DNA from: an uncultured Mycoplasmataceae bacterium
GTDB lineage: Bacteria > Bacillota_I > Bacilli_A > Mycoplasmatales > Metamycoplasmataceae
Assembly (NCBI GenBank): GCA_964439655.1
Contig: CAYTOW010000001.1
Span: forward strand, 1-29,353
Direction: 5' to 3'
DNA length: 29,353 nt
Below are positions 912 to 29,353 of this stretch, piece after piece (the stretch's first letter is position 1; each line of letters opens with the position of its first letter). Under the pieces are notes generated by a model. It did not search any database. It saw only the letters and a program-made list of their open reading frames with translations, and was not told the origin of the DNA. The translations under genes were made by a program, and so were the position numbers.

Positions 912-3599
912 ATGCAATCAAAATACATATGAATAATAGGGGGACTTTCTACCGCACTTGTTGGAGCCAGTTCAGCAGCTGTAGCTGTTCCTCTAGTAAT
1001 TAAAAACATAGCAACAAATCGTGCACATGATGCACTATCAAACTTTATCGATTTAGATGGTGGTAAACCAGCGGAAATAGATCTTAGCAAAAGATTAAAC
1101 GTTGTTGCCCTAGGTGATTCAATAACTTCAGGGTATAACGGATTTGTAGCAAAAGAAATGTTCTCTTATGCTGATGTTCTTTTTAGAGATCTTAGAGAAA
1201 GTCGTAAAGGGGCACCAACAGAAGAACAAAGACTTGTTACATATCACAACTTCTCTGAAACAGGAGCTAAAATTGGTGATGTAATGAAAACGATAGCTCG
1301 TCCTGATGTTATGTTTAGACTTCATAACTCAGACATTATAACTATTTCAATATCATCAAACGATTTAATGGCAGTAACGAGATTATTTAACATCTACTTT
1401 GATACCGCTAAAGCTCTACTATTTCCAACTGCTAATGCTGGGGAAGCTAAAGCACCAGAGTTTGGAGATGACCCACAAGAGATTAATAAAAACATTAGTG
1501 ATATCTTAAGAAGTATAGGAAGAATACTAACTGCTCCAGATGCTAAAGATGCCTTCCTTATCGATGCACCTAAAATAGGAATTGATGTTATTAAGAATGT
1601 TATTAAACGTGGACTAATGACACTAATGCGTGATCTTCGTCATTTAGCACCTAAGGCACATATTAAATTTATATTCCCTGAATTTCCTTTTGATGGAATG
1701 CCAGATTGATTAATGAATAAAAAATTGGAAGCTATTGGTAATCAAACTTTACCAGAGTTTTATAATCAAACATTTAAATCATTAGTTAAGGAAGCTGTTT
1801 CTTCTGGTTACACAGAATTTATTGACTTCCATGATCTATTTGTTAATGGACTTAAACATCTAAATCACTCTCATGATGACTTTAGAAAAAGATTATATAA
1901 TCGTGAAAAAGAATTCTTTGATCACAGCGACTATCAAAAAATTATTAACAGAGAATTAATGCATAACCTTGCAGATATTCACCCTACAAATATTGGGCAT
2001 CTAATAGCGGGTAACGAATTATTCCGTGAAGTTGCAGATGAGCTTAAAGTTGCAAATCCAAATGATATTTATCAAGGTTTTGATGGAGACTATTGACCAG
2101 GTAAAGTTAATGTACATAGCGACTTCTTTAAAGGCGAGTTCTTAAATGTAGATGAGCTTGCTGATGATGATTCATCTAAAAATATTCATGGTTATGAAGA
2201 AGGTGGTAAAACTACTTTAAGAAATAAATTTGCTCAAGACTCTACAATCCATAAATTCTCAAATGGTATAGTAGATGTTCTATATAAAGGTCATAAAGAT
2301 GGAAATCTAATACCACCTCTATTTGATCTTTTAATGGGATTCCTAGATAAAGGAACTTCAGAAGAACAGATATACAAAATATATACTGAAGCTGATCCTA
2401 GTGATCATACTAAAGTCATTCCAGCCTTAAAAGCTAATACAGGCTCAGCTCTTTTACAAATTATTAACTATGCAACTGAAAAAGAACCAGATACTATCTT
2501 AATGAGCTTTATAATAGATCAATTAAAATTTAGTACTAATGCGGATGCTAATAATGGAGTACTTTCTAAAATATTGAAAAGTGCATTGGGTGGAGATGCT
2601 GGAGGAGTAAATATTCCAGCTACTGATGACTTAGTTAAATATGTTATTACACATCATAATATTAAACCTGTTGATGGTGTATACTCAATTTATAGTGGAT
2701 TAGATGTTAAAGCTGATGTTCAAGCTTATCTTACTGAGGTTCTACCTGTTCTAATGAATGAAATAATGATGAATGACGGTGAAAATTCTCCTAAACTTTT
2801 ACCACTAAAAGATTTATTTGCTCTTTTAAATAATGGATTAGGAGACGACCCTATAACATTTGGGCAAGTATATCAAGGTTGAATATCTAGTCAAAGTAAT
2901 TTAATGGGCATTCTAACTTCTCTACCTAAAGGATTAGTAGATGCACTAACAATAACACCAGATTCAAAATGAGAAGATATTGCAGCAACATTAGACTTAA
3001 TAATTAAAAATGCTAAAGCAATTCATTGTTCAGATGCATATATAAATTGAGTGAAAGATATAAAAACAGAATGAGCTACTAAGTTCCATGAAGTTATGCA
3101 CTCCTTTACAGATGAAGGTATAGAATCAATTGAACAAAGAATAGCAATAGCAGTGAAAACAAGAGATTCTAGCGATTCATTTTTTAAAGATTTTCAGGAT
3201 GCTTATGAAACAATTAAGACTATTCCTAATACCCCAGAAGATTATGAGAAATTATCTAATGAAGAAAAACAAAATCTGATAAAACCTGTACAAACTTATC
3301 TTGATCAACTTGATGAAAAAGCAAAAGAATTATTATCAGATGATAAATACAATGAGTATAAAGAAAGAATTAATGCCGCAGTAACTAAAGCAAGCAGTGA
3401 TTTTATGGTGCTAACAGACCTTAGCTCACTTGCAACAGATTTGAATCAAGAACTTTATGATAAACATCAGAATATAGTAAATGAGATTATAAATGAATTT
3501 ACTGCAGCTAGAGATAAAAAAAGTACTGAATTAGCTGATTACTTCGATATTATCAAAGGAAGACTTTCAGCTGCGCAAAATGAAGATTCTAGAAGATAA
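912..3599 (+). CDS. SGNH/GDSL-family lipolytic hydrolase with N-terminal membrane anchor, 895 aa
   Basis: RBS AAGGAG at 901. Four track ORFs join in frame 3 through TGA codons. N-terminal hydrophobic segment IWIIGGLSTALVGASSAAVAVPLVI; block I VVALGDSITSGY (1113-1121), block III ISISSNDL, block V DIHP (1974-1985); long helical C-terminal region. Confidence 0.85.
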
Positions 3600-3644
3600 A
3601 GTTTAATTTTAAATATATATTTAATAAAATAATATTTAATAGAG

Positions 3645-11037: not shown

Positions 11038-11064
11038 AAAAAAGCGCATATGCGCTTTTATTTT
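11038..11064. terminator. Bidirectional terminator between convergent infA and rpsT
   Basis: Palindrome AAAAGCGC-ATAT-GCGCTTTT flanked by A/T tracts. Confidence 0.8.
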
Positions 11065-13010: not shown

Positions 13011-13211
13011 TATTTTATCTCTCTAGTCTATATTTTTAGAAAATTTAACGACTAAATTCAAGAATTTAACCCTCAATTTACCTATAAAATTTAATAAATA
13101 GAATTTTTAATTGCGTATTCATTAATATATAATATTTCTATATTAGTTTAATTAGTTTTTTCAATATTTTAGTTATTCTATTATAAATTTCAAAATCTAA
13201 AGGAGGATATT

Positions 13212-14315
13212 ATGAGCCTAGAAACTGAAAAGAAAGAAATTTCAAAAACCAAAAGTAGCATTTCTACAAGAGTAGATGTTTTAAATAAACGAAATGAGAT
13301 TTATGAGTTTATTTCTAAGGCAAGACAAAGGTTAAGAAAATTCCTAGTTAAAAAAATAGATCATAGTAATTGAGACCTTAAATCTACTGTTGTTGAAGAG
13401 TTATATAAGATCTTTAGGAAAGAGTCAAAAAAGGTTTTAAAGAACTTAAATTTTTGTCAAGAAAAAATTACTATTAAAAGAGATGATTTTATAAAAGTCT
13501 CTAAGGATTTTATTAAAAACTTTAAAGCTAATAAAGAAGGTGACTTACAAATAAAATTAAATAACATTAAAATTGAACAAGAAAAAGAAGTAAATAAACT
13601 ACTTGATAAATTTGATGAATTAACTAATGAAAAAAACGAATTATTAAAGAAAAAAGATTTACATGGAAAGGCTGTTAAATCTAAATCTCATGACACTCAA
13701 AAGCAATTACAATCTGAAGAGAGTTTAAGTATAGACTATGCGACTCAACAAATTAAAGTTTTAATTAATGAGCATGATAAATTTGTTGAAGAGGATATTA
13801 TTCCAAAAGTTGAGCAATTAACTAAAGATGCTGAAAAAATTAGAAAAGAGATTAAAGATATTGAATCTAAAGCTTTAGAAGATACATATAAAATTTCTGA
13901 AGAAAATAAAAATACCTTAATTAGAGAATTTACTAAAATTGCAAATATGGAAAAAGAAGTTATTATAAAATGTTTAACCTTTAATGACTTTTTAGAAGAT
14001 ACTCGTTACTTTATCGAAGATCAAAATAAAAAATATGTTCTTTTATTAAAATCTAAGAAAATTATCAAAAACAATGCTGCAAATGATATGCGGAAAGATA
14101 TTAATGCATTATATTCTTCAATTGCAGATTCAGAAAAGGAATTTGATAAGGTTAACCTTTCATTTGCGAAAACAAGTAACCGTATTGATAATAAAAACCT
14201 TAGTAGTAAATTGCTTGATAATGTTCGAACTAATGCGATTACAGCCTCTGATAATTCTGCAAAATTATTAGAAGGTTCTTTAGGTGCCTTAGAAGCTAAG
14301 AATGGAGAGGAGTAG
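13212..14315 (+). CDS. Hypothetical cytoplasmic coiled-coil protein, 367 aa
   Basis: RBS AGGAGG at 13201; open frame 3 under code 4; K/E-rich heptad-like sequence; no TM or signal segment seen. Confidence 0.85.
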
Positions 14316-14317
14316 AT

Positions 14318-15673
14318 ATGGCAGATAATATTAAAACTAACACAACAACACCAAAACCAAGTGCAACTAATGCTTCTACTTTAAAACAAGGACAAACAAT
14401 CACAACAACATCAAAACCAAGTGCAACAACACAAAAACCAGCTGCAACAAGTGCAACAACATCAAGACCAACTACTTCAGCGTTAAGAAGTAATACAACT
14501 AACACAGCAACATCAAGACCAAACACATCGACATTAAGAAGTAATGCAGCAAATACAAGAACTCTTAAACCTAATCCATCTACATTGAGAAGCAATGCAG
14601 CAAACGCAAGAACATCGCAAGGCAATAAACCTAATACAGTTAATTCTGGAGCAGGAGCACCTAAACAAAATCCAATTGGAGCAAGAGCATTGCAAGGTAA
14701 TAAACCTAATACAGTTAGAAAAAATACTAAAATTATTTTAATTGATGATGTTGCTAGATCAAAACTAATTCAGTCTAATAATGCATTTATTGATTTAGTT
14801 ACTATTAACTCAAAGAACCAAAACTTTAATCTTTATACTAACGATATTGAAAGTGCTTCAGCAAAAGAACTGGAAGATTTATTAAGAACTAAACTAGATA
14901 ATTTCTTTAAAAAATATGTTGAGGCTGCTAGACAATCTAAAAATGCTATTGAGAAAAAATACACAGAACTAACTAAGGAACTTGAAAGCAATTACATTCA
15001 ATTCAAGAAGACAAAGGTTATGGAGTTTGAAAAGGAATCGGAAGCGAATAATCGAAGATTAGCTGAAATAAAACGTATAATTTCTCAATATAAAATTGAA
15101 ATTGAAGAACTAAATTCTAATTTATTAAAGAAAATAGAAAATAATGATTTAGGATTAGAGACAGATTCTAATGCATCTAAAAGCAGACGGAAAAGTAGAG
15201 GTCATTCTAGAGGTGTAAATCTTAATAGTAATACTGAAATGAAATTGAGAATATCCGAAATTGAAAAAGAAATTAATAAATTAAAAGTTGAAGAAATTAG
15301 GATTGTTGAGAAAATCAATACACATCAACTTAGATATATTACTATGGTTGATGATCTGTTCACTAAAAAACAAAACAAGATTACTAAACTTGATATAGAT
15401 AAAATTGAGACTTATATTTGAATAAGAGACAACTTAATTATTATTAACAGAATAATTAGAGATATTAAAGTTAATATTGCGCTTCATAAAATTGATACTA
15501 AACGTACTGAATTTTATGAATCACTCGAATCAGTCGTAAATGCTGTTGATAAAATTAAAGAAGAGTTTGATTTATTTGATTCAATTGAAAATATTAAAAG
15601 CTTGATTGAAGCATCCGAATCAATTAATACGAATGCAAGAATCATTAATTTAAAACCTGGAGATGCTTTATAA
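14318..15673 (+). CDS. Hypothetical protein with T/S/N-rich repeat N-terminus and coiled-coil C-terminus, 451 aa
   Basis: RBS GAGGAG; track ORF extends through TGA 15419-15421 to TAA 15671-15673. Confidence 0.85.
14459..14716 (+). repeat. Intragenic degenerate repeats: 3 x 51 nt (17 aa) and 2 x QGNKPNTV
   Basis: TSRPTTSALRSNTTNTA / TSRPNTSTLRSNAANTR / TLKPNPSTLRSNAANAR starting at 14459, 14510 and 14561; CAAGGYAATAAACCTAATACAGTT at 14618 and 14693. Confidence 0.85.
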
Positions 15674-15693
15674 TGTTTTAATAAGGAATCATA

Positions 15694-16023
15694 ATGAATA
15701 TTAATGAAGCATATAAAATCTTAGGAGTTAGTGTTAAAACTCCAAAAGCAGAAATTAAAAAAAAATATTTAAAACTAGCTAAAAAATATCACCCAGATAC
15801 AGCTAAACCGGAATTTTTATTAAAAAGCGATATAAATATTTTTATGGTTAATGAAGCATATTCATGCATTACTAATTCATCAAATAAATATAATACAAAT
15901 ATTCGTGATATTAATAAATATTCAAACAATACTGCTATTTATAATATTTTTGAATTAATAAGTAATAGTTCAGATTTAGAGTTCGATATTTTTGATGAAG
16001 ATAAAAAAAAGAGAAAAAAATAA
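15694..16023 (+). CDS. Small J-domain (class C/type III) co-chaperone, 109 aa
   Basis: AYKILGV...EIKKKYLKLAKKYHPD...INEAY J-domain pattern with intact HPD; no G/F, zinc-finger or C-terminal DnaJ domains. Confidence 0.88.
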   Translation: MNINEAYKILGVSVKTPKAEIKKKYLKLAKKYHPDTAKPEFLLKSDINIFMVNEAYSCITNSSNKYNTNIRDINKYSNNTAIYNIFELISNSSDLEFDIFDEDKKKRKK

Positions 16024-16131
16024 TAAAATAATATTATTAAAAGTAAAAAAGTAAAATAGGTATCTTTATAAAATAAATTATGTACTTATTTTAGATGAAT
16101 GAAAATTCATTTGCAAAACCTAGGAGAAAAG

Positions 16132-18408
16132 ATGAGGATAAGAAGTTCGAAAAAAAACGAAGAAAATGCAATAGATATACGAGTAAAAGATTCTACACTT
16201 AAATGGTGAAAACAAACTATTGAAGTATCAGATCTTTTTATAGCGAATAATCTATATAGATGACACATTGAAGAGATTGTATCTCAGGATATTTCTGATT
16301 ATCCTGGTGTTGATAATAGACTTGTTGTTTCTTATTTTGATACTGATGCAGATAAGTTTAAAACTGCAACAGTTACATTTCAATGAGAAAATTCTAAAAT
16401 GGATTCTATTACAGCTTTTACTTCCGCACATAACTTTGAAATAAATAAAGAAATATTTAAATCTCTAAATTTTGCAAACATTAAAAATACTGATGTAACT
16501 TCTAATCATCCAAACGTTCATGTTAAGTCTGTTTCAATAAAAGATTGAAAATTATTTAATAGAACTGTTCTGATTTCTATAATAAGTGTAATTGGTAAAT
16601 CTCTTAAAGATCCAAATGGTTTTGAAACTGAAACTTTTAAAACTATCACTATTGGTTTAGATCAACATGAATTAATAGCTGCTACACTTGAATTAAAAAA
16701 GGAAGAGTCCTTTTTATATTTAAATGATGACCTAGAATTTTATGTTAAACAATTTACTCCTGTCTTAAACGAATATAAGAAGTTTTTTAGGGAAAGTGAA
16801 ATTCAGAAGCTTTTCAAAATAATTAATTCTGTTGAAGTTATTAACCCAAAAATTATGAGTGAAGAAATTGATATCTTCAATAAGAAAGCTACTGCAGGCT
16901 TTAAAGCAAGTATTCTTATTGGTAATGTTGTTAAAAATAATTTTGTTTTTGAATCATACTATGATGCAACCAATTTTAAAAACATCATTATTAAATACAT
17001 TAATGAATTTCCACTTATAGATAAAATTAAAGGTTTTCCAAGAAACGATATTAAGATTAATGATATTTTTAGTCAATGGGATGAAATTAACTTAAACTTA
17101 TGATCAAGTAGAAAAGAAATTAAAGAAATATTTATTAATAATGTAAAAGTTAGAGTTAAGAATATTGATATAAATGCAAATACGATTAATCTTGATGTTG
17201 TCTTTAAAAATGGTGAAGTGATTTTCCAAAATCTTACTTTTACTTTTGAAAAAAGTATCGATGATTATTTAGACGATTCTATAAATCAACATTTAGTTAA
17301 ATTAGTTAATGAAGAAGATTTATTAAAATATCCTAGATATGATTTAGAAATTAGTGATTTTCAAACTGTAGATGATTCTAAATTTAAAATTTTAAATGTT
17401 AAAGTAGAAGGTTATGAAAACAATAAAAATGATTATGTAAATTATAAATTCAATTTTCTATATGATGGCTCTACCGAATTTACTAAAGTATGTAGGATTC
17501 AATTTGCTGAATCTAAGATTTCATATTATTTTAATAAATTAAGTAAAAACTTTATTGATGTTACATTTTTAGAAAAAGTTAATGTTCAATATTATGAACA
17601 CCTAATTAAAAATGCAACCTTTAATGCAAAATGAATATCAATAGATAGTTCTGATTTAGATAAGATTATTTTAACAAAAACTTTTAACGATGAATTTGAA
17701 GTTAAATCTGTTCAGTTTAAAAGAGTTCAATTATCTACTGCAAAAGAAGTTCCTTTTAAAATAACTGCATATTGTGAACATCTAGATAGAGAAATGTTAT
17801 TTAATTTTTCAATTGAAATTAACAATAAAGAAGAATTGAGAAGGTTTAATGAACTAAGTAGTGATGATATTACTTTCGTTAATCCAGCAATAATACATTC
17901 ATATCCTATTCCAATTTTAGATGTCATCGACTTTAAGGTAGATCTTCCATTCAGTATTACTGATGTCTTTGTAAAATATAATGAAAAAATATCTCTTGTA
18001 AAATGTGAATTTGAAATTTCGTATAATGGACTTAAAAAATACCTTAAAAAAGAAATATATTTTGCTAACAATCATCTTAAGAAAGAAGGAAACGAGTTTA
18101 AAAAAGATTTATCAGAATTTAAACGACTTGCCGATAAAGATATTGATATTAAGTATGATCCTGATGCACATGATTATCATGTTCAACAAAAGGTTAATAT
18201 TATCATCCCTAATCATGACTCCTACTTTGTAAATCTTGAAGATTGAAAATTATTACATAAGAAAAATAAAGTTAAATTATACATTGCAGTAATTTTTGGT
18301 GATAAAAAGAGAGAATTCACTAAAATTATTAAGTATAATAATAAATTATCTAGAGATGATATTTTAGAGTGAAAGGAGGCAAATTATGAACCACGTAAAG
18401 GACTATAA
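16132..18408 (+). CDS. Hypothetical beta-strand-rich cytoplasmic protein, 758 aa (alternative start 16099)
   Basis: AGGAG 5 nt before ATG 16132; track ORFs 16855, 17218 and 17794 join in frame 1 through TGA; TAA 18406-18408 overlaps the next gene by 23 nt. Confidence 0.8.
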
Positions 18409-19792
18409 ACAAGATATACATTTTGAAAATAGACTACCCAATAGAGTAAATTCTACTTTAAGTATTAAGAATAGAATTAAGCAAGCTGCTGTTTCATTTG
18501 GAATCTTTATTACTGTTTTGCTTTTTGGCGCATTAATTGGAATCAAATATAACTCCAAACTTCAAGACACTGGTATATCAACTCTTGAAGTTACAATTAT
18601 ATCTTGAAGTTTATTACTCTATGGATTACTAAATACTTTCCTATATTTTAGAACTCCAATAAAGTTTGAAATAACTTGATTACGATTCACGATCCATGTA
18701 TTATCATCAATAATTTTTTCCGCAACAATAATATTGCTTAAACTTAATATTTTTGGTGATATCTTTAATTCAAAATCTAATCCCGAAACTGCTGCTACTG
18801 CTATTAAACTTTATGCTATTATTAACTCATCATTTTCAGCTGTTATATTAATTTACTTGTTAGTAATTGCTATTTTACAAAGAAGACAATATGCTTTACA
18901 ACTTAAAACAACTATTTTAGGAGGGGTATCATTAGCTATTCTGATTGCTGCTCCATTTATGATTCAAAAGTTTTCTAGTAGCTTTAAAATTATCAATGAA
19001 TATATATTTATGACCTCAATATTAATATCGATAGGAGCATTCATATTAGTAATGTCATTATTTGGGATAGTTAAATCATTTGAATCAGCAAAACTAAAAA
19101 ATGTAAATAAATTCCTTGGTACCTCTGTCACAATTACTGGTATTGCTTCAATCCTTGGAGTTGCTATATATAGTATTGCTAATGTAGGAATTGAATTAAA
19201 ACTTCTAACTGCAACCTCATTAATTTTGTCTCTATCCTCATTTGCAATAGTTAATCTATATTTAGTAATTTTTAAGAAATTTAAAAATTCAAATATAAGT
19301 AAATTTAAAAGTTCTGCTATAAAACAAAACTCATTAGAGAATAAATTAATTATTAAAGGATACATAATATTTAATCTTATATTCGCAATAGTATTAATAT
19401 TCTTAGTTAGTAAAACTGAAATTCATAAAACCTATGAGTATTCAGTAATGATTGCCACCTTTCCAATAATACTTATCGGAGTAACACTTCTAATTCTTCA
19501 ATTAAATAATATAATTGTATTTGTTAGATGAGAAATAATTTCGATAGTAGCCAATTTCTTATTAGCATTTCTATTTATATTAATGCAAGGTCTAATGTTT
19601 ACTATTCCCGATAAAGAAATAACACAAAATTGATTAGGTAGAGGAATTTGATTCTTAATTCTTAGTGTATATTTAGTTACAGAATTAGTTACATTATCAA
19701 TTGAAACGGCATCGTTATTTATAGGAAATAGTTCAAAAGGAAGTTTTAAAGATAAGATTAAAAATACAGTAAAAAATAAAGGAAAAAGATAG
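18386..19792 (+). CDS. F1-like ATPase cluster protein 1 (MSC_0624/MMOB1610-like) polytopic membrane protein, 468 aa
   Basis: RBS AAGGAGG; about 12 hydrophobic segments counted by eye; first position of the seven-gene cluster; TAG 19790-19792. Confidence 0.7.
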
Positions 19793-19801
19793 GAGAAAAT
19801 T

Positions 19802-21364
19802 ATGAAATTAAAAAAAGAGAAGAAAGCAAAAAAAGCAAAAAATAACTTTAGTGAAGAAAATACATTATTAGATGAAAATTCTTTCCAAGAAGAAGAGAAA
19901 ATGGAAACAGAAAATAAGGATAATAAAAAACCTAAAAAATCTAAAAAACCTAAGAAGTCTAAAAAACCTAAAAAAAAGAAGAATAAAAAGAATTTAAAAT
20001 CTACTAAAGATTCAATAATTGAAGCAGAAGAAAATTTAGAAGATAATGAAAATGAAGAAAACAACTCTAAAAAAGGTAAAAAGTCTAAAAAAGGTAAGAA
20101 GTCTAAAAAAGGTAAAAACCTTAAAAAAATAATATTAAAAGATAAAAATCCACAAAGAAAAGATGATCAAGGCAATTTACTTGTAAACTCTCAATTAGAT
20201 TTTGACATCGATGATTTATCAGTTTTTGCTGAAGAAGCTAGAAAGTTACAAACTAAAAAACGTGATGTTTTTATAAGAAATCACAATAATATTTTCAATA
20301 CTTTTATTTCTAGAAGAGAATATGTTGATTATAAATATATTTCACTTCAAATTTATTTAATTCAAAATAGTGGAAGTAAATATGAGTTTATAGGAATCGA
20401 AAAAACTGTAATAAGTATTATTGAATTTATTGAAAGAAATCTACGGAATGGTGTATCGATTGCCTTTGGTAGAGAATTTATAATTCAACTTAAAAATAAT
20501 CAGCAGTTAGAAACTCAAGGCATTATTGAATTAGATCAAAATTCTCAAATTAATAGAGAGAATACTTACACTATTAAAGATGTTAAGATTAATCTTTCTG
20601 GAATTAGAGAGTATGCACTGTATGAGTTTGTTATTTCTAATTTTGAACAAGTGGTTATTGATTTATTAAGTTATGGATATAAAGTTTTATTAGGTAACTT
20701 CATGCTTACATATATTGAAGATAGTTACTTTGTATTTGCTTCTGAAAAAATATACAGAATTCAAGAAGAACAAAGACACGATATTACAATGACATTTGAT
20801 ATTGCTATTGAGAATGCTAAAGAAGTTGAGGATTTTGCAAATGATTCTATAATTAATCAAGAGTTAAAAGAAATGGAAGATTCTTCAAATAACGAACAAT
20901 ATAAAACTCAAATTATTAATAAGGATGATCTTGAAGATAATAAGTTCAAGAGAAATAGTATATTCACTGTACCCGATGTTGATGAAATTAGACCAACTAA
21001 TAATGAACCAAAATCCGAGTTAAATGAAAAACAACCAGTTAAAGATAATAATAAATTAAGCAAAAAAGAACTTAAGGCTAAAAAAGCAGAGGAAAAAGCT
21101 AAAAAAGCAGCAGAAAAAGAAATGGCTAAGAAAGCTAAAAAAGATAAAAAATCAAAAGAAATCAATAATAAGAATTCAGTTAATAAAAAAGAGGAAGCAA
21201 AAGCTAAAAAAGCAGAAGCAAAAGCTAAAAAAGCAGAGGCTATTGCTGCAGCTAAAGCAAAAGAGGAAGAAGCAATTGCAGAAGCTCTTGCTAAAAAAGC
21301 TGAGGCAAAGGCTAAAAAAGCGGAAGCAAAAGCTAATAAAAAAGCAAAATTAAAGGGGAAATAA
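19802..21364 (+). CDS. F1-like ATPase cluster protein 2 (DUF2714/MSC_0623/MMOB1620-like core) with long Lys-rich N- and Lys/Ala-rich C-terminal tails, 520 aa
   Basis: Gene position 2; globular core at ~20280-20780 (REYVDYKYISLQIYL...IAFGREFII...FEQVVIDLLSYGYKVLLGNFML) recalls DUF2714; flanks are low complexity. Confidence 0.55.
   Translation: MKLKKEKKAKKAKNNFSEENTLLDENSFQEEEKMETENKDNKKPKKSKKPKKSKKPKKKKNKKNLKSTKDSIIEAEENLEDNENEENNSKKGKKSKKGKKSKKGKNLKKIILKDKNPQRKDDQGNLLVNSQLDFDIDDLSVFAEEARKLQTKKRDVFIRNHNNIFNTFISRREYVDYKYISLQIYLIQNSGSKYEFIGIEKTVISIIEFIERNLRNGVSIAFGREFIIQLKNNQQLETQGIIELDQNSQINRENTYTIKDVKINLSGIREYALYEFVISNFEQVVIDLLSYGYKVLLGNFMLTYIEDSYFVFASEKIYRIQEEQRHDITMTFDIAIENAKEVEDFANDSIINQELKEMEDSSNNEQYKTQIINKDDLEDNKFKRNSIFTVPDVDEIRPTNNEPKSELNEKQPVKDNNKLSKKELKAKKAEEKAKKAAEKEMAKKAKKDKKSKEINNKNSVNKKEEAKAKKAEAKAKKAEAIAAAKAKEEEAIAEALAKKAEAKAKKAEAKANKKAKLKGK
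19925..20119 (+). repeat. Two 3 x 18-nt intragenic tandem repeats (KKPKKS and SKKGKK)
   Basis: AAAAAACCTAARAARTCT units at 19925-19978; TCTAAAAAAGGTAARAAS units at 20066-20119. Confidence 0.85.
21197..21340 (+). repeat. AKAKKAE heptapeptide (21-nt) repeats
   Basis: GCAAAAGCTAAAAAAGCAGAR at 21197 and 21218; similar units again around 21284-21335. Confidence 0.8.
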
Positions 21365-21472: not shown

Positions 21473-22516
21473 ATGGCTAGTAAATTAGAAGATAGAAAAA
21501 AAATAATGAATGATTTACACAAGGTTGTTAATTTAAAGATTTTTAAATCAATCCAAAAAATTAATCAATATGAAAGTGATGTAAAAACAATTATTCAAAA
21601 TATCGAAAATATTAAAAGCATTAAAAACTTTTTAGCGAAAAAATCTTCTTTTTTCGATGTTTATTATAAGCAAGTTAAGAATCCTAAAAAATTAATGATT
21701 TTTATGCAATCAGTTGATGATTCTAATATCGATGTATATTCCGATAAAAAAGTTGAAGAGTATATTGCTAAAAATACAGATGAGAATGTTAAATCTTGAA
21801 TAATAGGTCCAAGACTATTTGATCATCTACTTAATTCTAAGATTATTACTGATGAACAAAAAGCGACTATTTCCTTCTTTGGAGACTACAATATCGATGA
21901 AAAAACTAAAGTAATTAATTTTTCAAAAATATTAAATGAGGTTGCAGATTACTCATTACTTGCTTTTGATAATAAAGATTTTACTCAAATAGATATTTAT
22001 TATAGTGATATTAAGGAATCAGGAAATATTAAAAGTACACGAGTACTTCCAATGATAGATGATTCTAAAAAGAGAAATAAAAAAGGATCAAGAATTAATC
22101 GTAAAGACAAAGAAGATTCTGATGATGATATAAAAACTAAAAAGTCTGATATCTATATTATCTATTCAGCATTATTAAAATCTATTCGAAGAAAATTCTC
22201 GAATTTAAAATTCTATTCAGAGATAGAAGAGATAAATAGTGCTATTTTAAAATTTGCAATTTCCTCTAATATAAAATATACAATTATTGGTTTTTTATTA
22301 AATGTAGAAATTAGAAAACTATTTTCATTACAAGAAGAAGTCAAAAAACTAGATGAGAACATTGAGGAAATCAATGCCCTTATAAAAGCCTTCCGTCAAG
22401 AAAAAATTACTCGTGAAATGTTGATGATTGCTGCTGCCAAATTTGCTAAAGATAAAAGAATGGAAGAATTGATCAAATTGGAGCTTGAAGCGAAAGGTGT
22501 TAATTATGCAAAATAA
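21473..22516 (+). CDS. F1-like ATPase gamma-like subunit (MSC_0622/MMOB1630-like), 347 aa
   Basis: Helical N-terminus MASKLEDRKKIMNDLHKVVNL; C-terminal RQEKITREML (22394) matches the gamma RQxxITxE motif; joined across TGA 21797-21799. Confidence 0.8.
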
Positions 22517-23108
22517 AAAAGTTATATTTAACGCAAATACTAGTTCAATAGATTCCAAAGTAGAAACTAAATTTAATATTTCAGCAATAAAGAACATAAC
22601 TATTGCTTCTTTTATTGATAAAAAAATGGTACTAAAATTTGAAAATTTTGAAAAACGGGCAAAGGCTAATAACTTTATTTTTCAAAGAGAAGCAACATGA
22701 ATAAGAATTATGTTTAAGAATAACATTTTTAGAGATTTTGTTGCAACACAAGTAATTGGAATAGGATCAAAAGAAGGTGTAGTTTTTGAAGTTGCAGGAA
22801 TATTTAAAGAGATTTCTATCAAGTTTGCAGTTAATGAAATTTTAAAGTTCGCTCTAGAAAATAACTATAAAGCTGCAACTGCAGATTTATTCTTTAAATA
22901 TCAAAGTAATATTGGAACTATAACTAAAAATGATTTTAAATTCCTAACAACAAAAAAAGTTGATCTAACTATGGATCCAATAGTTTATACCAATAAACGC
23001 CAAGAAGTTTTTCAGGAAATGCTAATGCTATCAGCTATAAAAAATGTTATAAAAACTTCTAGAAAGATGCTTTCTATAAAAATTAACGAGGAATTAAAAT
23101 ATGCATAA
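22506..23108 (+). CDS. F1-like ATPase cluster protein 4 (epsilon-like, MSC_0621/MMOB1640-like), 200 aa
   Basis: Overlaps the gamma stop and the next start; beta-rich N-half and helical C-half; assigned mainly by position. Confidence 0.55.
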
Positions 23109-26100
23109 AAATAAAAATAGATTGAAGAAAATAGTTATAGGCTCATTAGTAGGTACAACTACTGCTATTTTTGCTTCTGCAACTATTGTTCAATCTATTA
23201 ATCAACACGATAAAAATTCACTTAATTTAAATCTCACTAAGGATATAGATGAATTATTTTCTCCTGCTCCCCCAACTCCTCAGGTCTCTCTTGAGTTTCC
23301 TAAGACTATAAAATATCTATTAAAAACTTTTAGTGATGCCTTTATACCTGAAGATCCACAAACTATTACTGATCTTTCCGATCTAGCTGTATTCATGATA
23401 AAAGATCTTCATATCGATATTAGTGGAACAGATCTTAGTGAATATGGTAAAGCTATTTATGGTCTTCACGAATGATATGTTAAAGAGAACTTTGGTCTAG
23501 GTGGATCTGGTGCACCTGCTAATTTCCCGGCCGAACTAAAAACCAAACTATTAAGTGATGAATTTGTAACTTCTCAATTTAAAGAAATAAATGGAATTCC
23601 AGAAGTTGACCTTGATTCCCTTAAAAGAAGAGCATTAACTCTTACATTCCCAACTTCATTCGGTACTTTAATAAGTGAAAACTTAGCTTCTCATCCAAAT
23701 ACACCACAAATAAATCCTTCTCGCTTTGAACACAAAGTAGCTGTTGTTAATGCGCCAAATGTTCCTAGTGATAATGGTTCAGTTGAATTCACTTATCAAT
23801 TTGGTAATAATGGGGATACATATTCAATATTTCTAAATAATGAAAATGATGATCTTAAGAATAAAGATAAAAGCATAGATGATTTAATTTCTAGTGGTGC
23901 AATTATTATTAGAAATAACGATAAATTTGATCCAGATAATCCTCAAACAGTTAAGGATTTTAATGAGCATTTAACAATAACAAGAGATTTAGAAGGTAAG
24001 ATTAATTTCTATGTTGACCTACCATCAATTACTGATGTAGCAAAGTTTGGTGTTAATACATTTGCAAGTACTTGAAAAGATTCTATTACTGTTGGATTTT
24101 TAGATTCTACTATCAATCCTTCTCATATCGATGCTAATGAAAATTCAATTATTTCCTCAAATGAAGTAAAGGGAATACACTTAGTCTCTCATACAGCAAG
24201 TAGTTATTGAAAAACTGATAAGAATGGACATATAGGACAAACATTAACAACAACTCATACTTTAAAATTCTATGCAAGACCTGGAGAAAAATTTAAGTTT
24301 GAAGTATCTTATAATGGTTCAGAAAATATTTCTTCTGATGGAACAACAGATGGTTCAGGGCCGCCACCTGAAATCAATTTTAAAGTTAATGATGATGGTA
24401 CTGTAGATGTAGACAAAACATCGATAAGAATTCCATCTTCAATAATAAAACAATGAAAGGATCAAAATATTGACATTAAGGATTTTGAAATTAATACTCG
24501 TACAAAAACTGATAACAATGGAAATATATGAGCAGAAATCGTAATTGTAACTGATGACCATATCGGTATTGGTGCATTATTAAGTACAACAACACCAGGA
24601 AATATTAAGAGAGATGTTTTCAGATTAAATGATTATGGTTTAGATTCGCATCCTGTAGTATTTGAAAAACCAGTACAATTTGATGGGGATATAAATAAAC
24701 ATCCTGTTACATTTGAAAAAGTTGTTAATGCTGAAAGTGAGATTCCTAAACTTTTAGGAGATATGTATCTTGTTGCTACTGGTCATGCGCCTCAAAATCC
24801 CTTAAGCCATATGGATCAATATCAAGTAGATCCTTTTGACTCAAACCCTTATGTAGTTCCTACATTTACAAGTGGAAAATTAAATACTATATTAACTGAG
24901 ACTCTTCATCTTACAGCAGACGATAGACCAACAAATACTAAATTAATTGATACTAATTTTGGTTACTTGATAGAAAAATTAAATGAGTATGGTAATAAAT
25001 TAAACGATGTTATAAAAGAAGTTACTGGTGAGTATTTATTTAAAGAGGTGCCAAAAGATCATTTTATTACTGCTGAAGATAAAGAACCTGCAACTTTTTT
25101 AAAGAGACTATACATAGATAATAAGATAGCAAACAATAAAATTATTCATGAACTTCAAGTTGGTTTCGATGTTTATGAAAATGGGCCTGAAAATCTATCT
25201 AATAAAAATGAATCAATAGAAGGAATAGACATTATTCAAAAAGGAGATAGAGATTCCTTAGCTGAATTTGCATTTCCAAGACTAGTTGAAATAGTTAAGG
25301 CTAAACTATATGATCTAGAAAAACAATTTAATAATAAAATTTTAGATTATAAATTTACTACAATAATTTCTTCTCTATATACTTCAAATGCTAAGGTATA
25401 TAAAGCTCTAAATTCAAAAATTATTCAAACTCGTGAAATGTTAATTGGTTCAGAAAAACGTCAAATGCAAATATACATACCTAATAATGGTACTAATGGT
25501 CTTGAAGATGTTACTACTTTCAAAGAGCAAATTAAATCACTTATTATTGGTCTTAAAGGAAGCATTCATTTATCACATAGTGGATTTTCAGATTCAGAGG
25601 TTGCTGACTTTAATACGAATATAGACATAATAATAGCTAATCCTCCTGAGAGAGTTAATTATAAAGATATAGTTGTTCGTATGTATGATTTATTATTCAA
25701 ACTTATTGACACATTTTCAAGTCATGAAGAAAATGGTTTAGCTAGCATATTAAATATACAACGACATATTGATAAAGATAAAATTACTGAGTTTGTTATC
25801 AATGAAATTAACAATGGGATCTCAAAAATTAATTCTTCTAAAGAGAGAGTTATTTCTGCAGGGGGATTTGAAGTTGTAACTAACGATGGTTATATTCAAG
25901 TTGCTAATAATAATCTTCATCAAATATTTAGATCCTTTATTCTTAAAGATGGATTAACAAAAGAAGAAAAATCTAAGATACAAGAATTTATCGATAAAGA
26001 TTATGCAATCCATAGAAATGTTATTGCTGAATTATCTATTAAGAGTAGAAATTACGACATTCAAGATTTTATTCAAAGATTGACAGGAAAAGATATAATT

Positions 26101-26415
26101 GGAGTGGCAAACGAAATTCTAGAACTTGATCCATTAAATATGCTTTCTTCAGAATTGCCGGATGCATCTAAGTTTAGAGATGTTATTAAGACAATTAGTG
26201 AGAACTCAAAAGTAGTCTTTGGTGTCATTGCTGGCCTTGTTATGTTAATTGGATTATTGCTAACCCTTGCTGGATTTGCTAAGTTTAAAGGAAAAACAAG
26301 AGGAAAAGGAATTATAACTGCTGCAGGTATTTCAGTAATTGCAGTTGGGATTGCATTAGTTATAATAATAATTATATTCCCACCAACTGGAGCATTGTCA
26401 TTATTGGCATTATAA
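23101..26415 (+). CDS. F1-like ATPase cluster protein 5 (MSC_0620/MMOB1650-like) large membrane protein, 1104 aa
   Basis: Single frame-1 ORF under code 4; N-terminal basic + hydrophobic anchor (KKIVIGSLVGTTTAIFASATIV); two C-terminal TM helices separated by KFKGKTRGK; directly upstream of alpha. Confidence 0.75.

Positions 26416-26438: not shown

Positions 26439-29353
<2,915 letters not shown>

Follow-up and report, generated by a model that had tools for sequence, protein, structure and literature searches.

A block of four genes, here named g1, g2, J and g4, is found at positions 13212 to 18408 of the window, by which we mean the whole stretch of 29,353 nucleotides analysed (contig C1 of a mollicute metagenome-assembled genome of 678 kb in 86 contigs, 87% complete). 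The block runs directly into a seven-gene F1-like ATPase cluster, whose products are named protein 1, protein 2, gamma, protein 4, protein 5, alpha and beta. Judged by sequence comparison, the block is a conserved, lineage-restricted set of genes for signal-less proteins, physically coupled to a Type 2-like cluster, and this cluster belongs to a lineage, not described before, that is sister to the Type 2 (G1, gliding-motor) F1-like ATPase. We think it fairly probable that the block supplies cytoplasmic structural or assembly components of the motor of this sister lineage.

The four-gene block and its homologous loci

The genes are co-oriented on the forward strand, with g1 at 13212 to 14315 (367 amino acids (aa), no Pfam match, founding a new family), g2 at 14318 to 15673 (451 aa), J at 15694 to 16023 (109 aa, a stand-alone J-domain protein recognised by its Pfam match) and g4 at 16132 to 18408 (758 aa, with eight tandem beta3-alpha modules in its AlphaFold model). 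Translation code 4 (TGA read as tryptophan) was used for all open reading frames (ORFs). The intergenic gaps g1/g2, g2/J and J/g4 are 2, 20 and 108 nucleotides (nt), and g4 overlaps the gene of protein 1, which starts at 18386, by 23 nt; the Shine-Dalgarno sequence of protein 1 (AAGGAGG, 6 nt before its start) is located within the end of g4. These coordinates agree with those of an earlier reading of the same DNA made from the sequence alone (the sequence-only reading), in which the four genes were proposed as a module tied to the front of the cluster.

An exhaustive phmmer search of 1.84 billion representative proteins returned exactly five full-length homologues of g4, with 55, 32, 31, 25 and 23% identity. 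In four of these five other lineages (L008, L024, L025 and L027) g4 overlaps protein 1 of the same cluster type. In L008 (55%) the overlap is 20 nt and the protein 1 homologue is 58% identical; L024 (32%) and L025 (31%) carry a giant 2200-aa gene followed by g1, g2, g4 and the seven cluster genes, with no J gene; L027 (23%) carries g1 (split in two), g2, J (171 aa), g4 and the cluster. The fifth locus, L026 (25%), is a 3.6-kb contig with a g2 fragment, J (170 aa) and g4, and then, after 91 nt, a cytidylate-kinase-like gene. The upstream genes are homologous by phmmer, with E about 1e-32 for g1 and 1e-30 to 2e-15 for g2. The order g1-g2-(J)-g4 is kept wherever the flanks are visible, and J, when present, directly precedes g4 (window, L026, L027). 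The outer flanks vary: fmt in the window, the giant gene in L024 and L025 and other genes in L027.

Distant g4 relatives emerged from the exhaustive phmmer search only. Word-indexed searches missed them, returning for g4 a single further protein (P0006, 55% identity) and for g1 only itself and a 98%-identical variant. When 178 other species of the same GTDB family were screened with family hidden Markov models (HMMs) of g1, g2 and g4, no further carrier appeared, and the g4 model found none in 398 genomes of the order; a class-level genome search sampled mainly unrelated Bacilli and added little. Within the genomes searched, the predicted homologues of g1, g2 and g4 exist only beside each other. 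Since these homologues co-localise, front the same cluster type in four of five lineages and were not found elsewhere, the block appears to belong functionally with the cluster. The proposed tie between the four genes and the cluster is in this way supported by synteny and by the lack of unlinked carriers; homologues apart from such clusters, or in genomes lacking them, were not found in these searches, and the block of L026, which has no protein 1 behind it, is the single partial exception.

The Type 2-like cluster and its coupling to the block

Behind the block the cluster genes continue on the forward strand in the seven-gene order of Type 2: protein 1 with 12 transmembrane (TM)-like segments (18386 to 19792, 468 aa, a remote MMOB1610 homologue), protein 2 (19802 to 21364, 520 aa, a distant GliD/MMOB1620-type subunit), a gamma-like subunit (21473 to 22516, 347 aa), protein 4 (22506 to 23108, 200 aa, at the position of the epsilon-like subunit), membrane protein 5 (23101 to 26415, 1104 aa, MMOB1650-type, with one N-terminal and two C-terminal TM-like segments), an alpha-like subunit (26439 to 28028, 529 aa) and a beta-like subunit (28028 to 29353), which is cut by the window end and has 522 aa on a longer contig. 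Protein 2 has 520 aa in the window versus 517 aa at L009:13671-15224, on an otherwise identical JGI contig, the difference being a 9-nt length polymorphism between samples or assemblies.

The genome contains three alpha/beta pairs, namely a genuine F1Fo operon (C14), a second F1-like cluster (C3) and the pair of the window, and these were set against 178 species of the same GTDB family. A maximum likelihood tree of concatenated alpha and beta (IQ-TREE, LG+C20; supports given as ultrafast bootstrap/SH-like approximate likelihood ratio test, UFBoot/SH-aLRT) shows a Type 3 clade, which includes the C3 cluster, a Type 1 clade and a clade of Type 2 sensu lato (100/99) with the window inside. The latter splits into classic Type 2 (100/100) and a short-beta sister clade (98/98), which in turn is composed of subclade A (100/100), with the window and three metagenomic loci, and subclade B (100/99), with the GTDB genomes G015 and G023. 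Alpha and beta from the window thus group with the Type 2 subunits of Mycoplasma mobile and M. pulmonis, outside Type 1, Type 3 and classic Type 2 itself. Profile comparison by hhalign relates further subunits to classic Type 2, with probabilities of 88.9% for protein 1, 97% for gamma, 41.7% directly and 95-96% via subclade B for protein 2, and 93% via subclade B for protein 5. Beta has 520-556 aa in the short-beta clade versus 679-784 aa in classic Type 2; in the window its nucleotide-binding domain begins at residue 157 and the N-terminal extension of 200-300 aa is missing. By tree and profiles, the window cluster is related to Type 2 but lacks one of its defining features, the N-terminal extension of beta.

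A reading of the window cluster as a Type 3 (MIB-MIP) system was rejected on the basis of the tree and of the missing DUF31. PF01732 (DUF31) had no match in the 87%-complete genome, nor in G002, G015 and G023, while the control genome G001 gave three matches. The second F1-like cluster (C3:2280-12419, - strand) has seven genes, belongs to the Type 3 clade and is located after ribF and truB. As this cluster is present and DUF31 was not found in the genome, there may be Type 3 clusters that have no detectable MIP.

The block's promoter probably lies in the AT-rich intergenic sequence of 201 nt upstream of g1 (13011 to 13211, + strand), with a Shine-Dalgarno sequence (AAGGAGGA) at 13200-13207; consensus promoter matches in this region are not commoner than in shuffles. 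A terminator scan of the + strand from 13212 to the window end found nothing convincing, as the sequence-only reading had also reported; it gave three weak intragenic matches, with a total of 7 versus 3.8+/-1.9 in shuffles, a difference that carries no information. Canonical terminators are often absent in mycoplasmas, for which reason their absence is weak evidence for a single transcript. A single transcript of all 11 genes would agree with how the genes are spaced and with the absence of strong terminators.

Several observations weigh against a motor-dedicated block and in part favour a different explanation, in which the block would form an operon of its own, such as a coiled-coil system for cell shape, division or chromosome organisation together with its own co-chaperone, and would lie beside the cluster through common descent in a small number of relatives, with no link in function. 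In L026, the sole non-adjacent case, a cytidylate-kinase-like gene with a P-loop (IAIDGPSGSGKST) is located at 3099-3617, where protein 1 is expected, so that the fusion of block and cluster is not obligatory and the module is separable. All known block carriers are metagenomic, and adjacency may for this reason partly reflect shared descent. The AT-rich spacer between J and g4 (16024 to 16131, + strand, with GGAG before the g4 start) has 108 nt versus 12-54 nt in relatives; being longer, it may harbour an internal promoter. Three tiny metatranscriptomes of the source samples gave low-complexity matches only and no coverage of the locus. The J gene is absent from L024 and L025. Subclade B clusters have no g1, g2 or J beside them; directly upstream of protein 1 they carry instead a gene for a signal-less protein of 634 or 667 aa (L011:6400-8304 in G023 and L012:11994-13997 in G015, respectively). 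These two proteins match each other at E 1e-98, and an ESM Atlas model resembles bead-on-string surface-lipoprotein folds, but signs of homology to g4 are weak (BLAST negative, hhalign 22.8%, module HMM E 7e-5 in one of the two). An independent operon would also fit g1 and g2 having matched generic coiled coils only. We nevertheless regard it as unlikely, since the genes of g4 and protein 1 still overlap at start and stop in homologues of only 23% identity, with the outer flanks reshuffled, since the families are found in carriers of this cluster type only, and since one would expect to meet a general cytoskeletal system in a larger number of mollicutes.

Predicted proteins of the block and their possible roles

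Neither g1, g2, J and g4 nor any of their homologues has a TM-like or signal-like segment in a Kyte-Doolittle scan, in which the proteins of the window and the homologues were treated on the same scale and which, as a control, found the 12 TM-like segments of protein 1 and three in protein 5. AlphaFold predicts g1 to be helical throughout; two of its helices, 109 and 96 residues long, pair as a hairpin, and in this part the predicted local distance difference test (pLDDT) is 85-94. A crude heptad score, for which the known coiled coil of the gamma subunit was the positive control, covers 19% of g1 and 32% of g2 versus 2-4% in shuffles. In g2 the N-terminal region of about 135 aa is a lineage-specific, low-complexity sequence rich in T, S, N, P and A that is absent from the orthologues, followed by a conserved, heptad-rich C-terminal region of about 310 aa with the strongly conserved motif IEKIExYIWIRDxLxxxNRIIRD. 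Pfam searches with both proteins gave noise only at E up to 10, with no enzymatic or filament-forming domain recognised. Searches of PDB profiles with alignments of g1 and g2 returned only non-significant coiled coils of the keratin, vimentin and HA2 type, ESM Atlas feature searches no usable match for either, and fold searches with the g1 model generic long coiled coils (Rad50, SMC, MCP), all with E>0.005. An origin of g1 and g2 as paralogues was rejected, the hhalign probability being 1.2%. The coiled-coil character that the sequence-only reading assigned to both proteins is in agreement with model and heptads for g1 and with the heptad score only for g2.

The J protein matches PF00226 with 47.9 bits versus a Pfam cut-off of 27.8, its HPD motif is intact, and this motif is invariant across the three J orthologues (window, L026 and L027). 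Its tail is acidic and then basic. With 109 aa the copy in the window compares to orthologues of 170 aa (L026) and 171 aa (L027), in which a C-terminal part of about 70 aa is kept and which also have a short piece like the DnaJ C-terminus; by this comparison, the protein of the window is a truncated version of its orthologues. The only other J-domain detected in the genome is that of the canonical DnaJ on contig C35, and the single DnaK is encoded on contig C19. The J-domain assignment of the sequence-only reading is borne out by these data; its idea of a dedicated co-chaperone as member of the block applies to the window, L026 and L027, but not to L024 and L025, where the gene is missing.

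The start of g4 at 16132 is favoured over an alternative ATG at 16099, which would give 769 aa, by gene calls on two independent contigs and by the length of the homologue. An in-frame TAA at 16069 means that no upstream extension could add a signal peptide, and none of six g4 family members has a hydrophobic N-terminal segment in which a signal peptide or lipobox could be recognised. The AlphaFold model, built on six sequences, has a mean pLDDT of 79.9 and a predicted TM-score (pTM) of 0.35 and is composed of eight tandem modules, each with a three-stranded sheet plus a helix; the low pTM is expected for beads on a string. This specifies what had been described earlier as a beta-rich protein, and a module HMM of 69 positions finds eight copies in each member of the family. 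Foldseek against AFDB clusters matches the model to mycoplasma surface lipoproteins of the Lipoprotein_17 type with probability 1.0 and E from 1e-21 to 1e-8 (best 2.6e-21), among the named matches being MAA2-like proteins and mvspO, and the ESM Atlas agrees. Against the PDB it finds generic bead-on-string beta-domain proteins only (protocadherins, TM-score about 0.1). At the sequence level Pfam gave noise only for g4 at E up to 10, and g4 and its homologues had no match to PF04200 even at this threshold. According to the model, g4 is a surface-type repeat fold in a protein without export signal.

This combination raises the alternative that g4 leaves the cell without a classical signal peptide, as a cargo or an extracellular component, with J plus DnaK, g1 and g2 as export chaperones or adaptors and protein 1, protein 5 and the F1-like ATPase as the translocase. 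J-proteins and Hsp70 classically hold export substrates unfolded, which would suit such a role, as would the likeness of the g4 modules to domains of surface and variable lipoproteins and the overlap of g4 with the gene of a 12-TM permease-like protein. Yet no export signal of any kind was detected, likeness of fold does not determine cellular location, the J gene has been lost in two lineages, and we know of no demonstrated protein translocation by Type 2 or Type 3 ATPases. A translocation function was raised for these clusters by Beven et al. 2012 (PMC3369863), and the related Type 3 ATPase is needed for the function of surface MIB-MIP by a mechanism that is not known (PMC12994834); against this, the F1 part of the M. 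mobile Type 2 system is a cytoplasmic rotary-type motor whose gamma shaft fills the central pore (PMC11864180). We give export of g4 a low probability. The wider form of the idea, in which the locus would be an export or surface-assembly machine, and not a motor only, whose F1-like ATPase and 12-TM partner thread or mount g4 outside with DnaK, J, g1 and g2 as chaperones, has a slim chance of being correct. The domains of g4 are otherwise known from mycoplasma surfaces only; if the idea is true, g4 would be the first candidate substrate for the 'translocase' function long discussed for the F1-like X0 ATPases of mycoplasmas.

Genes for giant proteins with a C-terminal TM anchor are located directly upstream in L024, L025 and L011, and a giant surface protein encoded at this position in three related loci suggests that the whole locus could be a surface-protein-plus-motor machine. 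In the genome of the window a giant, repeat-rich ORF is located on a different contig and thus not adjacent to the block (C7:8990-21736, - strand); it runs off the contig end, which makes its length of 4248 aa a minimum, and its product has a C-terminal TM anchor. It is homologous to the 2200-aa proteins of L024 and L025 (26-30% identity over 1500-2000 aa) and more weakly to the giant of L011. A genome search with the giant protein failed to recover even the known relative in G023, and its negative outcome carries no information for this reason. Similarity to Gli521 is marginal and limited to the C-terminal repeats, and the giants are not claimed as homologues of Gli521 or Gli349, the resemblance being one of repeat motifs. 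By tblastn with M. mobile queries, from a reference genome (G002) which we take to be M. mobile 163K and which has ORFs of the sizes expected for gli123, gli349 and gli521, the 87%-complete genome yielded no convincing orthologue of Gli123, Gli349 or Gli521. The only matches were weak, at the level of repeats, to a 439-aa ORF at C8:2307-3624, which has an N-terminal TM segment and resembles internal repeats of M. mobile Gli349 at 23-34% identity (E 1e-5 to 4e-9).

The giant genes also bear on a further explanation, in which the block would mainly encode transient assembly factors, namely dedicated chaperones serving the giant surface protein or membrane protein 5 rather than lasting structural parts of the motor. 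The upstream position of the giants in three loci, a J-domain gene with intact HPD embedded in the block and the lack of recognisable enzymatic or filament-forming domains in g1 and g2 would be in accordance with it. However, the 758-aa protein with its eight repeats is large for a chaperone, as are the two proteins of 350-450 aa, J as the sole clear chaperone part is the least conserved member, and the giant gene of this genome lies on a contig other than that of the block, which makes this explanation quite improbable.

If the block provides structural or assembly components of the motor, as we favour, the elongated helical g1 and g2 and the module chain of about 750 aa of g4 would form, or hold in place, a cytoplasmic superstructure that surrounds the membrane-associated F1-like motors. 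The corresponding job is done in M. mobile partly by the N-terminal extension of beta, by phosphoglycerate kinase (PGK) and by GliD bridges; in the clade of the window, where the extension is missing, the block would possibly replace this architecture of beta N-terminal domain and PGK. The J protein might recruit the single DnaK of the cell for assembly, a contribution which would be helpful and, since two lineages lost the gene, dispensable.

As for the surroundings, the left half of the window is made up of housekeeping genes (a GDSL lipase-like gene, udk, ymdB, valS, secY, adk, map, a NERD gene and fmt), to the right of which the 11 co-oriented genes of block and cluster follow. Between infA and the convergent rpsT, at 11040-11059, is found a hairpin of 8 pairs with a T-run, the only strong intrinsic-terminator-like one in the right two-thirds of the window. 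Elsewhere in the genome, C55:105-3308 (- strand) contains a 1068-aa ORF starting with a Cas9-like RuvC-I motif (DIGLDIGISSVGWA), which may encode a type II CRISPR nuclease. The sequencing runs with DNA of the window are labelled hydrothermal vent metagenome.

Comparison with known systems

Of the known proteins with tandem small beta3-alpha modules, the Lipoprotein_17 (PF04200) lipoproteins, such as MAA2-like proteins and Mvsp, have the same modules by predicted structure. The g4 protein differs from these in having no PF04200 match and no signal peptide or lipobox, and in that its eight modules are fixed and conserved at 23-55% identity rather than variable. For the J protein the comparison is with the J-domain protein TopJ (MPN119) from the terminal organelle of Mycoplasma pneumoniae, a large, multi-domain protein of the Pneumoniae-group machinery. 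By analogy, both would be non-canonical J-domain proteins which exist beside DnaJ and are tied to a motility or attachment machine. TopJ is large and multi-domain, however, while the J protein has 109 aa in the window and 170 aa in relatives, the machineries are unrelated and no homology outside the J-domain is claimed. The parallel to M. pneumoniae drawn in the sequence-only reading holds as an analogy only, the cluster being related to the M. mobile Type 2 motor and not to the M. pneumoniae system. A term search in part of the literature on ATPases of Types 2 and 3 gave no mention of J-domain or DnaJ.

In the literature on Type 2/G1 and Type 3 the clusters are described as seven-gene clusters; for Type 3, MIB-MIP are upstream, and 'several upstream genes' are mentioned in the M. 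mycoides operon (PMC3369863, PMC7052211, PMC11864180, PMC12994834). The Type 3 F1-like X0 ATPase (Berlureau 2026, PMC12994834) is a precedent for accessory genes directly before protein 1, apparently in one operon and ATPase-dependent. The upstream genes differ in kind: those of Type 3 encode the surface-exposed MIB and MIP with the DUF31 protease, those of the window signal-less proteins without DUF31.

Type 2 is known as the seven-gene cluster MMOB1610-1670 of M. mobile, encoding the G1-ATPase 'twin motor' (Beven 2012, PMC3369863; Toyonaga 2025, PMC11864180), and is reported in four Mycoplasma species only (PMC11864180). In the literature searched there is no description of the short-beta sister clade or of its block. 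What appears to be new, on the strength of the homology searches and the tree, is a set of three conserved protein families (g1, g2 and g4) and an optional J-protein attached to a short-beta sister lineage of Type 2. Among relatives of rotary ATPases, only the Type 2 F1-like ATPase has been proposed to drive cell locomotion, and the sister lineage touches on two open questions, how the force of the motor reaches the surface and how the motor evolved from F1Fo. While the carriers are uncultured, g1, g2 and g4 are concrete candidate proteins for interaction work.

With the Type 2 system of M. mobile the cluster of the window shares the same order of seven genes, the position in sister clades whose union has a support of 100/99, and profile links of protein 1, protein 2, gamma and protein 5. 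The N-terminal region of beta recruits PGK and stabilises the motor dimer in M. mobile (Toyonaga et al. 2025, PMC11864180); this PGK-binding, dimer-bracing extension of 200-300 aa is what the beta of the window does not have. Conversely, the cluster of the window type is fronted by three to four extra genes (g1, g2, J and g4), for which searches of M. mobile and of further classic Type 2 carriers gave no match. At the surface, M. mobile has Gli123, Gli349 and Gli521, of which none was detected in the genome of the window, where a different giant surface protein is found instead. The comparison of the two sister lineages gives leverage for separating the ancestral parts of the gliding motor from lineage-specific additions, and it also informs on alternative cytoplasmic architectures for an F1-like motor.

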